Source: Chiloscyllium plagiosum | Taxonomy: Eukaryota | Direction: 5' to 3' | Length of the DNA stretch: 20,000 bases | Assembly: GCF_004010195.1 (NCBI RefSeq) | Contig: NC_057718.1 | Coordinates: forward strand, 88,442,894 to 88,462,893 | In this document: positions 1 to 20,000 of the stretch, piece after piece | How the letters are laid out: the number at the start of each line of letters is the position of its first letter | How positions within the stretch are numbered: position 1 is the stretch's first letter | Made by a program: the position numbers and the translations under genes | Notes under the pieces: generated by a model | Told to the model about the DNA's origin: nothing | Databases searched by the model: none | Seen by the model: only the letters and a program-made list of their open reading frames with translations

Positions 1-957
1 ATGTTGTTTTTCATTCCCTAATTACTTGCTATACATACACACTAACCTTCTGTTAATCATGCACAGATCCCTCTGCATCGAGCTCTAAAATTTCACTATT
101 TAAATAATACTGTCTGCCAAAATTAGTGGGTGGCACAGTGGTTAGCACTGCTGTCTCACTGCGCCAGAGACCCGGGTTCAATTCCTGCCTCAGGCGACTG
201 TGTGGAATTTGCACATTGTCTGTGTGGGTTTCCTCCGGGTGCTCCGGTTTCCTCCCATAGTCCAAAAATGTGCAGGTTAGGTGAATTGACCATGCTGAAT
301 TGCCCGTAGTGTTAGGTGAAGGGATAAACATAGGGGAATGGGTCTGGGTGAGTTGCGCTTCGGCAGGTCGGTGTGGACTTGTTGGGCCGAAGGGCCTGTT
401 TCCACACTGTAAGTAATCTAATCTTAAAAAAAATTAAGCAATTTCACATTTTTCCAAATACTACGTTGGCAGATCTTTGCTCATTCACTTCACCTATCTA
501 CTTAATTTTGTGGCCTCCATCACAACATCTCTGCATTGTCAGTAAATGTACTTAGCATACCTTCAGGTCCCTTCGTCCAAGTCATTGAGATAAATTGTGA
601 ACAGTTGAGGACCCAGCTCTGATTCCTGTGAAACACCACGTGTAACATTTGACTAACCTAAAGAAGACCCACTTATGCATGCTGTTGGCTGACTAGCAGG
701 AAGACTTTTCTTCCATCCAGGCCAACATGCTGTCCCTTGGAACTCCATTATATGAAATCTAAATACAGTATATCCACTGGGTCTCCCTATTCACAACACA
801 TGTTACCTTAAAGAACTCCAATCATGTTTAGTCAATCTATTTCTCTTTCACAAAGCTAGGTTGACTTGGGCTGATTGTCTTGACCTTATCGAAGTGTCCT
901 GCTATAATTTTAATCACTGCTTCTAACATTTCCCTATGACACATGCTAACCTAACTG
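1..957 (-). mobile_element. Old, decayed CR1-clade LINE ORF2 (RT region), interrupted by the SINE at 126-433
   Basis: The minus strand around 608-638 (ggacccagctctgattcctgtgaaacacc) is a degenerate GVPQGSVLGP RT motif. Flanking sequence resembles the CR1 RT on both sides of the SINE. Many indels and stops. Continues at 1675. Confidence 0.75.
126..433 (+). mobile_element. HE1-type tRNA-derived V-SINE, near full length
   Basis: Pol III A box TGGCACAGTGG (131-141) and B box GGTTCAATTCC (175-185). V-domain GTGGGTTTCCTCCGGGTGCTCCGGTTTCCTCCCA. HER1/CR1-like 3' tail GGGCCGAAGGGCCTGTTTCCACACTGT followed by TAATC repeats and an A-run. Possible TSD AAAATTA (119-125 / 430-436). Confidence 0.93.
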
Positions 958-4861: not shown

Positions 4862-4960
4862 AAAACAAAAGCTCAAATTGCTGGGAAAACTCAGGTCTGG
4901 CCACATCTGTGGAGAGAAAGCAGAGTTAATATTTTGGGTCCAGTGAACTTCCAACAGAAC
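4862..4960 (-). mobile_element. Solo half-copy of family B Penelope-terminus-type element
   Basis: The reverse complement aligns by eye to 4012-4110 (TCACTGGA, TTAACTC, TTTCTCTCCAC, CCAGACCTG). The hammerhead core is degenerate. Confidence 0.7.
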
Positions 4961-4962
4961 AG

Positions 4963-5245
4963 GATTTGCATTTATGTAGCATCATGTGCAGCCTCAACAT
5001 CCTGAACCTTTAGCCTCCTCCATTATGAACAGGTGAAATGTAACTTGCAACAGCCATTTGGTGCACCACAAGTTGTCACAATCAGTAATTACAGCACCAC
5101 CGTTACTTGGTAACATTGAATATTAAGTGTTAGCCTGGACCTTAGGGGAGAGATGTGACACCTCTGACAGCGTAGCACTTCCCTGCAGAACTGCACAGAG
5201 GTGTCGGCCTGAGTTTGTGCTCAAGTTGAGAGTGAGACTTGAATG
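4963..5245 (-). mobile_element. Deu-domain tRNA-derived SINE (SacSINE1-like), decayed
   Basis: CACCTCTGACAGCGTAGCACTTCCCTGCAGAACTGCACAGAGGTGTCGGCCTGAGTTTGTGCTCAAG..GAGTGAGACTTGAA matches the reverse of the Deu-SINE head/core. L2-type tail TTGCATTTATGTAGC at the left end. Confidence 0.75.
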
Positions 5246-5273
5246 TAGCATAGCCTTTGGTTTGGTGAATGGA

Positions 5274-5494
5274 GGAGAAAGTGAGGTCTGCAGATGCTGG
5301 AGATCAAAGTTGAAACTTTATTGCTGGAACAGCACAGCAGGTCAGGCAGCATCCAGGGAACAGGAGATTCGACGTTTCGGGCACAGGCCCTTCTTCAGGA
5401 ATCAAGAAGGGCCTGTGCCCGAAACGTCGAATCTCCTGTTCCCTGGATGCTGCCTGACCTGCTGTGCTGTTCCAGCAATAAAGTTTCAACTTTG
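5274..5494. mobile_element. Young Penelope-terminus-type fold-back element (family A): 31-bp unpaired tail plus perfect 91-bp inverted repeat with 8-nt loop
   Basis: Arms 5305-5395 and 5404-5494 are exact reverse complements, and the ORF track gives the same peptides on both strands. Loop CAGGAATC. A 13-bp TSD TTTGGTGAATGGA lies at 5261-5273 and 5491-5503. Confidence 0.93.
5366..5403 (-). ncRNA. Minimal type I hammerhead ribozyme motif, complete core
   Basis: The minus strand reads GAUUC CUGAAGA A GGGC-CUGU-GCCC GAAA C GUC^GAAUC. It has a 5-bp stem I (GAUUC/GAAUC), both conserved core boxes, a 4-bp stem II, a palindromic ACGU mini-stem III and a GUC cleavage triplet. Predicted cut between 5371 and 5370. 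Confidence 0.85.
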
Positions 5495-5682
5495 GTGAAT
5501 GGACCAAAACTGAGGTAGAATTGTTGGACTGGCTGAGTCCTGAACGCCTTATTTGATTTCCAGCTCTGCACATAATTCATGGTTTATGTCTTCATACTCT
5601 CTATTTTATACTGGCTTTCAATCTTTTGTACTTTGGCAATTGATGTTGAACTGTAGTTTTTCATCCCTCGTCACCACCCTTC

Positions 5683-5744
5683 CCAGTGCAGATTTAATGG
5701 GCTGAATGGCCTCTTTCTGCACTGTAGCGATTTAGTCATTCTAT
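5683..5744 (+). mobile_element. HE1/HER1-type 3' tail fragment
   Basis: CAGTGCAGATTTAATGGGCTGAATGGCCTCTTTCTGCACTGTAG..ATTCTATG is similar to the SINE tail at 365-412. Confidence 0.7.
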
Positions 5745-12544: not shown

Positions 12545-13016
12545 TCATTCACGTCTCGGCAATGCGTCGGCAATCACAATTTCTCGTCCTGCCACATGCA
12601 CAATTGCCAAATTGAATGGCTGTAACAACAAGCTCCATCTAAACAGTCTGGCATTTTTGTCCTTCGATTTCTCAACAAACTTCAATGGGTTACAATCAGT
12701 GTATATGATTGTCTCCAATACATCACTGGTAACATAACTGAAATGTTGTAACACCAGCACCAAGCTCAGTCTCCTCCTCAACTATCAAATATTTCTGATG
12801 AATGTTCAAATTCCTGGAGAAATATCCAATAGGTCTTTCTGTGGTTCTCGTCTTCCTGTCAGAGCTCAGTACTGACACCCATATCACTAACTTCAATAGC
12901 CCCTTGAATGGCTTTGTGTAATTAAGTATGGTTAATACTGGGGCAGTGGTTAACACAGCTTTCAGGCTGTCAAATGCCTTCAGGCAGTCCGCTGTCCCAC
13001 TGAAACTACTTGCCAT
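12545..13016 (-). pseudogene. Gypsy RT connection and RNase H remnant (C-terminus of pol)
   Basis: Peptides AFDSLKAVLTTAPVL, RPIGYFSRNLN, IIYTDCNPLKF, ARLFRWSLLLQPFNLAIVHVAGREIVIADALPR, followed by a stop and then the 3' UTR and PPT. Confidence 0.92.
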
Positions 13017-13830
13017 TCTTTAGCAATTCAGTGAGGGGAGCAGCCACACTGCTAAAATTTGGTATGAATTTTTCAATAAAATCCACTCAATCCCAGGAAT
13101 TGTGGTACTGTTCTTTTTGTCAGTTGGTATGGGAAAATCCCCAGTTACCTCTTTTTTTTGTTTTTGTATCCTGTGGGTCCATTTGTCCATGTGCAATAAC
13201 ACAGCCCAGGAAGATGACTTGGGCTTTAGCAAGTTCACTCACTTTTAGCCAGGTTTATCACCAAGCCTGCCTTCCGAAGTTGATAGAACAAGTCTGATAA
13301 ATGTTGCAAATGTTCTTTCCATGTGTGACGAAAAATCACCAGGTCATCAATATATATGACACAATAGGATAATCTAGCAGTGACTTTATTGGTTAGTCTC
13401 TGAAATGTGGCTGGCATGTTTTTCATACCAAATGGCATGACTTTAAACTGATACAGTCCATTTGGCGTGATGAAAACAAATTGTCTTTGCTCCTTCGGAC
13501 AAAGGCATCTGCCAGTATCCTTTGGGCAAGTTCAACTTAGAAATAAGTTGCGTGTCCCACTTTTTTTCAACAGTCTTCCAAACGTGGAATCAGATTTGCA
13601 TCAGCCTTTGTACCTGCATTGACTTTGCAACAGTCCAAACAACCGTTGGGTACCATCTGGTTTTGGCAGCATTACATTGGGTGAGCTCCAGTCACTGTAA
13701 CTCACTTCAATTATATCGTCCTGGAGCATGCGTTCAATCTCCTTTTGAGCCTGTACCAACTTTAGAGCTTTATGTCTATAAGGATGTTGCTTAATTGGAA
13801 CAGCATCTCCTGTATCTACATCATGCATAA
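13017..13830 (-). pseudogene. Gypsy reverse transcriptase remnant
   Basis: Peptides HDVDTGDAVPIKQHPYR, IIEVSYSDWSSP, MPFGMKNMPATFQRL and the catalytic YIDD. Frameshifted. Confidence 0.95.
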
Positions 13831-14618
13831 CTAGGGTAGTACTTCCCAGCCTATTTCTACATATCTCTCCATGTGACAGTAATAACTCTTTCAGGTCATT
13901 TCAATTTTCCTTTGGAAGGTAACTCAACAATTTTATCCCAATTTTCGATAACTTCCTCACTGTCTAATTTAATAAGGAATGTCCAATTCCGAATCCTCTG
14001 AACTTGGTTCTTCCTGCTGTGTTGTCACCTATAACAGTCTTCTCTGGCTTTCCTTCCCTGTCAAAATATCTTTTGAGCATACTCGCATGACAGCCTGAGA
14101 TTTCTTTCTGTCTGGAGTCCTTATCAAATAATTCATCTCATGCAATTTCCTTTCAACTTGATATGGTCCACCTAACGTTGGAAGTAACACTAATACCTTA
14201 TCCCTAATCACAAAATTGCAAGTTTTTGATTTTTTAAAAAATCTGCTTGTTGTTTAATTGTATGCTGTGATACTTAAAGTGCTGTCTAGCCAACTTCCCC
14301 GTTCTACTTAAATCATTCCCTAAAGGTTTGACACATGGTCCAAATATGTGGTCTCTGAATTCTGATTTACCAATTTCTCCTTAATCAATTTTAACAGTCC
14401 TCTCACTTCATGCCCAAAATCTAATTCACTTGGACTGAATTTGGTCAATTCATTTGGTGCATCTCTGATCACAAAGTACAAATGGAATTCCCCTATCCCA
14501 ATCAGCTGGATAGTCTTGGCAAGAAGCCTTCAACGTGGTCTTTAATGTATGTTGCTACCTTTCTGGATGATATGCAGTAGATTTGAATTGCTTTATTCCT
14601 AAGCTGTCCATAACTTAA

Positions 14619-14811: not shown

Positions 14812-14972
14812 GAATATTTTTTGTTGTAGCGTTTGACCCTTGATCTGATTCTATCTCTGTGGGTAGTCCATATCTGGTGAAATATTTGAGGAATTCCCCT
14901 ACGATTCTTTTAGCTGTGATATTGCGTAATGGTACGGCCTCTGGAAGTCTAGTGGACACATCCATTATTGTT

Positions 14973-15109
14973 TAAAAATGCCTTCCTGAAGAAGGGCTTA
15001 TGCCCGAAACGTCGATTCTCCTTCTCCTTTGCTGCCTGACCCACTGCGCTTTTCCAGCAACACATTTTTAAGTCCTGATCTCCAGCATTTGCAGTCCTCA
15101 CTTTCTCCT
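14973..15109 (+). mobile_element. Solo (non-palindromic) family A element with hammerhead core and 15-bp TSD
   Basis: TSD ACATCCATTATTGTT at 14958-14972 and 15110-15124, duplicating the integrase codons TIMDV. The body is the reverse-complement homolog of 5274-5400. Confidence 0.9.
14984..15015 (+). ncRNA. Minimal hammerhead ribozyme core, catalytic nucleotides intact, weak stem I
   Basis: UC CUGAAGA A GGGC-UUAU-GCCC GAAA C GUC^GA. Only 2 bp of stem I pair next to the core. Confidence 0.65.
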
Positions 15110-15184
15110 ACATCCATTATTGTTAACAAATACTGATTCCCACTTTTTGTTGAGGTAGGGGGTCTTATGCAATCAATCAAGACT

Positions 15185-18930: not shown

Positions 18931-19131
18931 TAGTAAAATATTTATGTTGGAATCCGTTTGCCCTTCATTTCAAAACATGACAATGTCATGTCAGTATTTT
19001 AAAAGCATGGAAGACTGTCTACAAGACAAAATTAATCACCTTTTGGAACAGCAAGTAATTGGTAAATGTGTTCTAATACAGTAAAATATTCCAATGAGCA
19101 AAAGGCACAGAAGAATAATGGAAGCTTTTAA

Positions 19132-20000
19132 TTTCCTAGCTTCCAGCCCTGCTGTATTTTCACCATCCCTCCAGACCTCCCCCTCTCTGAGGATGAAAGA
19201 TCAGTCCTCAGCAGAGGCCTCAACTTCGTCCCCCTACGCTCCCGGACTAACGAATTCAACACACGGCGAGATGTCAAACAATTCTTCTGCCGCCTTCGCC
19301 TCTGCGCCTACTTCTTCAACCAGGACTCCTGCCCACCCTCTGACGACCCTTTCTCCCGCCTCCAACACACCCCATCCACCTGGACACCCCGTGCTGGCCT
19401 CTTATCTGCCCTCGATCTCTTCATAGCCAACTGCCGCCGTGACATTGACCGCCTCAACCTGTCCACCCCTCTCTCCCACTCCAACCTCTCACCCTCTCAA
19501 CGTGCAGCCCTCCACTCCCTCCACTCCAACCCCAACCTCACTGTCAAACCGGCAGACAAAGGAGGCGCGGTAGTAGTTTGGCTCACCGATCTTTATATTG
19601 TTGAGGCTAAACGCCAGCTCGCGGACACCTCCTCCTACTGCCCCCTTGACCATGACCCCACCTCCCACCACCAAACCATCATCTCCCAGACCATCCGTAA
19701 CCTCATCACCTCAGGGGATCTCCCATCCACCGCTTCCAACCTCATAGTCCCACAACCCTGCACCGCTCGTTTCTGCCTCCTGCCCAAAATCCACAAACCT
19801 GACTGCCCCGGCCAACCCATTGTCTCAGCCTGCTCCTGCCCCACCGAATTCATTTCTGCATACCTTGACACGGTCCTTTCCCCCTTAGTCCAAGAACTCC
19901 CCACCTACGTTTGGGACACCACCCACGCCATCCACCTCCTCCATGATTTTCGCTTCCCTGGCCCCCAACGCCTTATCTTCACCATGGACATCCAGTCCCT
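19132..20000 (+). mobile_element. Penelope-like retroelement reverse transcriptase ORF, N-terminal part, stop-free to the window edge
   Basis: My translation of frame +1 after the TAA at 19129-19131: IFTIPPDLPLSEDERSVLSRGLNFVP..FFCRLRLCAYFF..STWTP..SNLSPSQRAALHSL..TVKPADKGGAVVVW..FCLLPKIHKPDCPGQPIVSACSCPTE..LPTYVWDT..IFTMDIQS. This carries the PLE-diagnostic DKG motif and RT motifs 1-3. No in-frame ATG near the start, so it is probably 5'-truncated. Confidence 0.93.

Follow-up and report, generated by a model that had tools for sequence, protein, structure and literature searches.

A perfect palindrome with an apical hammerhead motif in Chiloscyllium plagiosum as a probable double stub of a Penelope-like element

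Why would a flawless 91-bp palindrome carry, exactly at its apex, a hammerhead ribozyme motif that its own hairpin would bury? The question is raised by a locus in a 20,000-nucleotide stretch of the Chiloscyllium plagiosum genome (NCBI RefSeq assembly GCF_004010195.1, contig NC_057718.1, positions 88,442,894 to 88,462,893 of the forward strand), which we call the window and in whose coordinates the features of the locus are given. An earlier, sequence-only reading had described the apical hammerhead as complete and masked by the hairpin. We asked what the arms of the palindrome are, where else they occur, and how two inverted copies could have come to meet at the edge of a ribozyme.

Architecture of the palindrome and its apical motif

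The inverted repeat consists of two 91-nt arms (5305 to 5395 and 5404 to 5494) that are 100% complementary, with 0 mismatches, separated by an 8-nt loop, CAGGAATC, at 5396 to 5403. On either side lies a copy of a direct repeat, TTTGGTGAATGGA, which we read as a target-site duplication (TSD); the left (5261 to 5273) and right (5491 to 5503) copies are identical at 13 of 13 positions. The sequence-only reading was therefore correct in describing mismatch-free arms and a perfect 13-bp duplication. The final 4 nt of the right arm, TTTG at 5491 to 5494, are also the initial 4 nt of the right direct repeat. As they are common to both, the palindrome includes 4 bp of microhomology, and the insert proper, of 217 bp, spans 5274 to 5490. 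The insertion is probably young, as had been suggested (recent or homogenized): the arms have no mismatches, the two copies of the duplication are identical, and the exact 30-mer and 35-mer found in both arms are the commonest of the repeat family described below.

Alignment with other copies in the genome resolves the insert into two copies of the 3′ end of one Penelope-like element (PLE). The long arm is a 129-nt copy on the minus strand (5274 to 5402), which aligns with natural long copies (e.g., L005) to their 3′ end. In its own sense it begins at ATTC, 4 nt before the CUGA box of the hammerhead, and its last 35 nt (5274 to 5308, minus strand; TTTGATCTCCAGCATCTGCAGACCTCACTTTCTCC) form an optional PLE tail terminating in ...CACTTTCTCC. 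This tail is present in the long arm only, and the family has two 3′-end classes. The short arm is an 87-nt copy of the same 3′ end on the plus strand (5404 to 5490), recognized by its sequence and by the alignment of copies; it begins AAGAAGG and terminates in ...AATAAAGTTTCAAC, the tail-less 3′ end. Both arms thus consist of family sequence, and their 3′ ends face outward, one tailed and the other stopping at the second family end. Relative to the CUGA box, their 5′ ends lie at −4 (ATTC) and +3 (AAGAAGG), with position 5403 unmatched between them. This junction nucleotide (C on the plus strand and G on the minus strand) fits the continuation of neither arm: in an alignment of the window with the long copies L005, L008, L021, and L030, these read C-ATTC at the junction position.

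On the minus strand, 5366 to 5403 holds a minimal type I hammerhead motif, identified by its sequence, by the fold of the isolated piece, and by its agreement with the published architecture of minimal hammerhead ribozymes (min-HHRs) (PMC4209133). In the 5′-to-3′ direction of that strand, it comprises the 5′ strand of helix I (GAUUC, 5403 to 5399), the CUGAAGA box (5398 to 5392), a bulged A (5391), helix II with its loop (GGGC, 5390 to 5387; CUGU, 5386 to 5383; GCCC, 5382 to 5379), the GAAA box (5378 to 5375), a C (5374) preceding the cleavage triplet, the GUC triplet (5373 to 5371), and the 3′ strand of helix I (GAAUC, 5370 to 5366). All three elements of the type I core (CUGAAGA, GAAA, and GUC) therefore lie within 5398 to 5371, and the predicted cleavage site, 5371/5370, is the one named previously. 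The loop does supply GAUUC and CUG to the minus strand, as claimed, and the plus-strand mirror copy, starting AAGA at 5404, lacks C3-U4-G5: because the short arm begins at AAGAAGG, its hammerhead is without CUG. Helix I has 5 bp at the locus and 4 bp in long family copies, and helices I and II close the core with a G10.1-C11.1 pair in the fold of 5362 to 5403 (minus strand). An ATG 18 nt after the predicted cleavage site opens a frame that runs through the tail and is a putative ORF start.

The description of this hammerhead as complete does not hold: helix III is missing within one molecule of the minus-strand sequence, which makes the motif a minimal hammerhead. GAAAC runs directly into GUC, so that no helix III loop is possible, and because ACGU is palindromic (a concept from PMC4209133), a helix III could form only between two molecules. 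Min-HHRs, which sit in PLE terminal repeats without helix III, have low activity, and only as dimers; self-cleavage of a single motif was undetectable in published assays (PMC4209133). For the PLE hammerhead of Anolis, cleavage required the protein of the element (PMC11167929). Cleavage of RNAs that start near the loop, which had been thought possible, is therefore unlikely when they carry a lone copy.

Folding of the whole 230-nt minus-strand RNA gives a single 91-bp hairpin at −195.5 kcal/mol, compared with −64.6 ± 4.5 kcal/mol for shuffled sequences (z = −29). The isolated 42-nt apex (5362 to 5403, minus strand) reaches −11.2 kcal/mol with 5 bp in helix I and 4 bp in helix II, which is only z = −1.9 relative to shuffles. 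The two folds are mutually exclusive, as the sequence-only reading had it, and masking of the ribozyme by the hairpin holds as a thermodynamic fact, but not as a function of the locus. When two 42-nt motifs were cofolded, only a strand-swapped duplex was returned (−26.5 kcal/mol versus 2 × −11.2 kcal/mol); the nonnested topology of a dimeric hammerhead is beyond the energy model. A 22-nt hammerhead core occurs three times in the window at ≤3 mismatches versus 0 expected, which together with the z score of the hairpin excludes a chance origin of the palindrome and its hammerhead. Among the 13 Rfam matches at an E value of ≤10 between 4800 and 6000, there was no hammerhead family, and no family in the window reached its gathering score. 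The best microRNA look-alike was mir-3158 (54.9 bits versus a gathering score of 97), with the others at ≤30 bits, and such scores are what any perfect hairpin gives.

An abundant endonuclease-positive Penelope-like family

To identify the source of the arms, we followed longer copies of the family upstream, where they extend into a single open reading frame (544 aa in L054, where it is cut by the end of the locus, and 649 aa in L061). In both copies (L054:2-1633 and L061:5646-7592), Pfam RVT_1 is matched at 35.7 and 35.3 bits, respectively (cutoff, 29.6), followed by GIY-YIG at 21.2 and 21.5 bits, just under the cutoff of 22.6. The RT carries a DKG-type KPADKGG motif and a YIDD box. Further motifs were read in the translations: a C-NRRR-C-NT-C linker (C-x4-C-x2-C) and, for the endonuclease, IIY-C-IR-C-SR-C-GLL-YIGET, RFREH, EEERLIF, and GMN. 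The frame terminates ∼165 nt before the hammerhead. According to PMC8557442, the hallmarks of endonuclease-positive (EN+) PLEs are cysteines between GIY and YIG (CCHH), conserved R, H, E, and N residues, and an optional CX2-5CxxC linker, the last being typical of the Neptune and Nematis clades. The motifs of the ORF match that description, including the PLE-type endonuclease motif. The succession of RT and GIY-YIG in one ORF, together with the Penelope-type cysteine motifs, marks the family, on its predicted protein, as an EN+ PLE. The form of the insertion is that of an EN+ PLE as well, with a one-sided 35-nt tail, an adjacent inverted 5′-truncated copy, and a short TSD of variable length.

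Toward the 5′ end, the longest frames reach a proline-rich N-terminal region, and the upstream walk found no upstream tail or hammerhead, many of the loci being masked with N. Among ∼90 longer loci, many of them likewise masked, there was no copy with an upstream direct repeat (direct pseudo-LTRs), nor was a full-length copy with an upstream terminal repeat recovered from long copies that are often N masked. As no full-length copy was recovered, where the hammerhead lies with respect to ORF start and promoter is inferred. One upstream hammerhead, in L110, was rejected as a family terminal repeat, as it belongs to an unrelated mini-palindrome of another subfamily.

The size of the family was estimated by pattern searches of the 3.56-Gb genome, exact unless stated otherwise, with reversed words as controls. 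The hammerhead-core 30-mer occurs 12,252 times, and the 35-mer just downstream of the hammerhead occurs 21,376 times (reversed controls, 0 for each). The 33-mer from the ORF's C terminus has 1,230 occurrences, a 35-mer upstream of the RT domain has 512 at ≤2 mismatches, and a 37-mer still further upstream has 47. This steep drop in word counts toward the 5′ end of the element indicates heavy 5′ truncation, as predicted for such copies. Among aligned copies, the 5′ ends vary and the 3′ end, which they share, takes two forms, a short one ending ...AATAAAGTTTCAAC and a long one with 35 further nt ending ...CACTTTCTCC, and duplications of 8 to 15 bp with unrelated flanks were read by eye at other aligned family sites.

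The palindromic form is the usual habit of this PLE family. A search for both helix-II anchors, exact and in inverted orientation with ≤30 nt between them, found at least 2,270 head-to-head mini-palindromes genome-wide. Of the first 100 matches of the 35-mer, 44 fall in 22 head-to-head pairs, and in 12 of the 22 the start-to-start spacing is 126 to 141 (both counted by eye); at our locus it is 133. At about half of 50 listed head-to-head sites, each strand has a CUGA box, and at the remainder one strand or neither does; the state seen here, one complete and one incomplete hammerhead, is one outcome among many. The window itself contains a separate, tailed solo mini-copy of a related subfamily (14983 to 15108, plus strand; helix II loop, UUAU), with 10 nt of filler before the copy and a 15-bp duplication, ACATCCATTATTGTT, at 14958 to 14972 and 15110 to 15124. 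In a Pfam scan of eight ORFs of the window, only two had matches, both to fragments of LTR retrotransposons (RVT_1, 13235 to 13531; RT_RNaseH_2, 12723 to 13019).

Perfect palindromes can also be created by fold-back during library preparation or by the assembly itself, and the inverted structures of PLEs are a known source of trouble in assemblies (PMC8557442). The center of the palindrome is not crossed by short-read contigs: those of four public runs break inside the repeat and leave the center unbridged, and among the joints listed from these contigs there was no empty-site joint. The sequencing runs listed for this stretch included no RNA run. The outer junctions, on the other hand, are crossed by contigs covering 4917 to 5294 and 5472 to 5714 (X1, records 1 and 7) and 5483 to 5631 (X2, record 14), which come from two samples and two studies, although X1 may be the assembly's own sample. 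Given also the perfect 13-bp duplication, the asymmetric arms with their one-sided tail, and the 2,270 sister sites, an artifact is extremely unlikely, in agreement with the earlier assessment.

Copy starts, outer ends, and the origin of the inverted arms

To see why the hammerhead stands at the apex, we examined where copies of the family begin. Thirty arms, including those of solo copies, were sampled through a word outside the hammerhead, the precision of the BLAST ends being a few nucleotides; in 21 of them the copy starts within −11 to +6 of the C of CUGA. At the 50 listed head-to-head junctions, no arm extends past −6 although the pattern permitted −14. When shared bases are credited to the longer arm, this arm ends at −3 to −6 in 44 of the 50 junctions, and the inner end of its partner ranges from −5 to +8 (both read by eye). 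The hammerhead is at the apex because family copies usually start 3 to 6 nt before it, and nearly every stub of the family bears it at the inner end. The apical position, far from being peculiar to this locus, thus follows from the usual copy start of the family.

Two ways in which the ribozyme might set the copy starts were considered and rejected. Stalling of RT at the ribozyme fold is expected 3′ of the fold and not after passage through it. Self-cleavage after GUC would shift the starts 29 nt downstream, where there is no such cluster, and the spacing near 75 that self-cleaved starts would give was seen in only 1 of 22 head-to-head pairs. Long copies read TCATTC at the copy-start point, with TTTTAT ∼30 nt upstream. 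These sequences resemble an initiator preceded by an A/T-rich box. Rotifer pLTRs have been described as containing a TATA box and a motif similar to Inr (PMC3846280). The simplest reading of the copy starts would be that the template RNA begins at this point, with its 5′ end at −3 to −6.

The sequence-only reading had proposed a conditional ribozyme switch. A locus of that kind would be maintained for hiding the hammerhead in read-through RNA and exposing it in short RNAs, or for supplying dsRNA or microRNA. The two folds are indeed mutually exclusive, and the perfect hairpin does yield microRNA look-alike matches, all of them below threshold. However, thousands of insertions at unrelated sites show this same structure, with variable junctions, and the CUGA box is found on both strands at about half of the 50 listed sites and on one or none at the others. 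The hammerhead lacks helix III and has no Rfam hammerhead match at an E value of ≤10; single min-HHRs were inactive in published assays (PMC4209133), and that of Anolis needs the element's protein (PMC11167929). Any promoter would lie upstream of the start of the stub, in sequence that the stub lacks. A maintained switch or small-RNA source is, on this evidence, most improbable.

The outer ends of the arms follow a strict pattern. Exactly one arm is tailed in 23 of 24 distinct head-to-head sites, and two tailed arms occur in 0 of 24. The outer end of the second arm falls at reference position 107 to 117 in 19 of 23 sites, where position 110 is the short end used by most second arms. Solo arms, by comparison, are tailed in 8 of 16 cases and shorter in the other 8, and the short end at 110 is used by 8 of the 16. 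This bears on a rival account of the same double stub, in which two independent cDNAs, each primed on one nicked strand from a separate RNA, were joined midway by repair. The outer ends of both arms are the two 3′ ends that solo copies also use (8 tailed versus 8 shorter; n = 16), and the clustering of the second arm's end at 107 to 117 in 19 of 23 sites fits such an account. Yet an independent choice at ∼1:1 predicts about half mixed pairs, and 23 of 24 were mixed with none tail/tail; the one-tail rule thus speaks against initiation having occurred twice, independently and at random. Asymmetry extends to the inner ends, one being fixed at −3 to −6 and the other ranging from −5 to +8.

The two-cDNA account also has to accommodate changes that are private to a site. 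At C1:31161770-31161859, an 8-nt deletion is common to both arms and is found nowhere else in the genome (two matches in all), and at two independent sites with the same junction both arms carry the variant CTGAGGA. The shared deletion, the shared CTGAGGA, and the one-tail rule would together favor a single coordinated event, in which one arm templated the other or both copied one RNA. The deletion, seen at one site, favors templating of one arm by the other or a later gene conversion between the arms, and a second RT initiation site would be the simpler explanation of the discrete tail-less outer end at 107 to 117. We regard two separately primed cDNAs as unlikely, though clearly less so than a maintained switch. 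A single event agrees with the self-priming by which palindromes at the inverted junction are explained in PMC3846280, and it is compatible with the two-strand priming of the Anolis element in vitro (PMC11167929).

A further alternative is a nonautonomous fold-back or MITE-like element that was copied as a whole palindrome. Some junction types do recur among the 50 listed sites (TTCTTC joined to CTGAAGAA, six times; GGAATTCC, five times), and the two sites with CTGAGGA in both arms share a junction while being independent. Against this, junctions are very diverse (∼25 types per 50 sites), and 1 to 3 bp of microhomology are involved in the recurrent ones. The outer ends coincide with those at which RT starts on the autonomous element; they are asymmetric, with the tail on one side, and solo copies with the same ends are about equally common. 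A 91-bp RNA hairpin would, moreover, be a poor template for RT. Wholesale copying of a palindromic element is accordingly highly unlikely.

We conclude that the 217-bp insert at 5274 to 5490 is very probably a pair of head-to-head, extremely 5′-truncated copies of the 3′ end of an abundant EN+ PLE, flanked by a 13-bp TSD and likely produced in a single event of target-primed reverse transcription. In such an event, the GIY-YIG endonuclease of the element would nick the target 13 bp apart, and cDNA synthesis would begin at the element's internal initiation site or sites. The template may have been a short RNA starting 3 to 6 nt before the hammerhead, with transcription probably beginning at the initiator-like TCATTC of the terminal repeat. 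Synthesis of the second arm would belong to the same event, its template being either the first cDNA (by self-priming or a template switch at the 5′ end of the RNA) or the same RNA, primed on the other nicked strand. A narrower proposal, which we put forward tentatively and hold to have somewhat less than an even chance, is that the mini-palindromes record, as complete cDNAs, a short transcript from TCATTC, with RT turning back at the end of the RNA and copying its own product. If so, each of the at least 2,270 palindromes would mark a PLE transcription start and a self-priming step in the unsolved transposition cycle, and the tail, being on one side only, would record the point at which the hairpin is resolved by the endonuclease or a second start site.

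For the locus, a target-primed double stub means that the apical placement of the hammerhead and its masking by the hairpin are likely a consequence of the copying geometry and not a function. As the stub has no upstream promoter region, it could be transcribed only by read-through. As a retroelement stub that is most likely inert, the locus itself has little significance. In annotation, such perfect hairpins with a ribozyme core should be recognized as PLE footprints and not taken for microRNA genes, fold-back transposons, or assembly errors. The broader interest lies in the family: its discrete copy starts just before the ribozyme, its strict one-sided tail, and the private changes shared between arms bear on the unsolved insertion mechanism of PLEs. 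A large young family is material for testing how PLEs build inverted repeats, a step described in the literature as still undefined (PMC8557442).

Relation to known retroelements

The structural features of the locus are all in print, and its layout has already been described for PLEs. The published hallmarks include a minimal hammerhead without helix III, an inverted 5′-truncated partner, a tail on one arm, and a variable TSD (PMC4209133, PMC3846280, PMC8557442, PMC11167929). Pen2a_Av of Adineta vaga has an inverted pLTR, a 31-bp tail on one of its inverted repeats, and a TSD (PMC3846280). The general PLE scheme likewise has an inverted 5′-truncated copy and a one-sided tail of 30 to 40 bp, in a transposition cycle with "still undefined features" (PMC8557442, including its Fig. 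2). Our locus shares with them the head-to-head copies with 3′ ends outward, the one-arm tail (35 nt here versus 31 bp in Pen2a_Av), a short variable duplication, extreme 5′ truncation, and a hammerhead in the repeated terminal region. It differs in being reduced to 129 plus 87 nt without an ORF or direct repeat, in belonging to a family of tens of thousands of stubs, and in that its arms meet at the 5′ edge of the hammerhead.

Twin priming of LINE-1 elements also yields an inverted segment and a TSD in one retrotransposition event, through the use of both nicked strands. The locus resembles its products in the inverted segment, the TSD, and the proposed single event involving both nicked strands. 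Twin priming, however, inverts a more 5′ region of the RNA and hence creates no palindrome, whereas both arms of the locus copy the same region.

Among metazoan min-HHRs (Cervera and De la Peña 2014, PMC4209133), most are single motifs from truncated PLEs, and some form close pairs on opposite strands. The motif described here is like them in being of type I, with CUGANGA and GAAA boxes, a G10.1-C11.1 pair, a helix I of 4 to 5 bp, no helix III or loop 3, and a palindromic ACGU at the cleavage site. Its helix II, with 4 bp and a 4-nt loop, is unlike the 7 to 8 bp of the Schistosoma families (PMC4209133).

The PLE PAc, a Poseidon element of Anolis carolinensis studied in vitro by Frangieh et al. 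(2024; PMC11167929), offers a mechanistic comparison. In PAc, two internal RT start sites bracket the tail, so that the sequence between them equals the genomic tail, as in the two 3′ ends seen here, and both target strands are cut and extended. The PAc hammerhead, which overlaps the ORF start, is protein assisted and is dispensable for insertion in vitro. It lies ∼85 to 92 nt before the RT starts; at our locus, 62 and 97 nt separate the cut site from the two ends. PAc is a member of the Penelope/Poseidon clade, which lacks a CX2-5CxxC linker, whereas the family studied here has such a linker, like Neptune and Nematis.

Animal non-LTR retrozymes, as presented in a preprint (bioRxiv 10.64898/2026.07.22.740005), are tandem hammerhead repeats with a proposed derivation from PLE terminal repeats. 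In common with them, the stubs are short, noncoding, hammerhead-bearing sequences related to those terminal repeats. Retrozyme tandems, unlike the stubs, are head to tail and can yield dimeric ribozymes and circular RNA. The copies at our locus are head to head, and a transcript of it would therefore contain one sense and one antisense motif.

The tail-less 3′ end and the right flank of the insert

At window positions 5468 to 5490, as in other copies of the family, the tail-less 3′ end of the Penelope-like element (PLE) is predicted to lie within a small stem-loop (AAAGUU..CUUUGA around UCAAC), which is immediately preceded by the word AAUAAA. This predicted structure resembles the "AC-rich stem loop" at which reverse transcription begins in the Anolis PLE (PMC11167929). 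In the right flank of the insert, contigs from two public sequencing runs (X1 and X2) differ from the assembly by four extra nucleotides, TGAA, behind position 5529, and a further run (X7) has a T>C change at position 5565. Each of these represents either a polymorphism or a difference in assembly.

A second mini-copy, pol fragments and an open frame in the window

The window also holds a solo PLE mini-copy of a related subfamily, with a tail, on the plus strand at positions 14983 to 15108. Its hammerhead has a weaker helix I, and the helix II loop is UUAU in place of CUGU. The mini-copy is flanked on both sides by a 15-bp duplication, ACATCCATTATTGTT, with a 10-nt filler, TAAAAATGCC, separating the left duplication from its start (whole unit, 14958 to 15124). 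On the minus strand, frame-broken pol fragments of an LTR-type retrotransposon occupy positions 12723 to 13900 and match RVT_1 (60.7 bits; 13235 to 13531) and RT_RNaseH_2 (34.7 bits; 12723 to 13019). The sole GC-rich part of the window (19001 to 20000; 54% GC) contains a Ser/Thr/Pro-rich open frame of 113 aa on the plus strand (19085 to 19426), which had no match in Pfam and may be a host-gene exon.

Related loci elsewhere in the genome

In one mini-palindrome (L125; G000:C1:31161450-31162150), both arms (C1:31161770-31161859) carry the same 8-nt deletion, through which the hammerhead has lost its predicted cleavage site together with the helix I 3′ strand. The two arms account for both occurrences of this shortened version in the whole genome. 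Internal segments of the PLE open reading frame have been amplified as head-to-tail tandem arrays at two C1 loci. One array (L043-L047; G000:C1:42047353-42047841) repeats the endonuclease C terminus with a period of 114 bp in at least 5 units, and the other (L132-L142; G000:C1:136150329-136152495) repeats the N-terminal region with a period of 213 bp in at least 11 units. The reading frame stays open across the units of both arrays.
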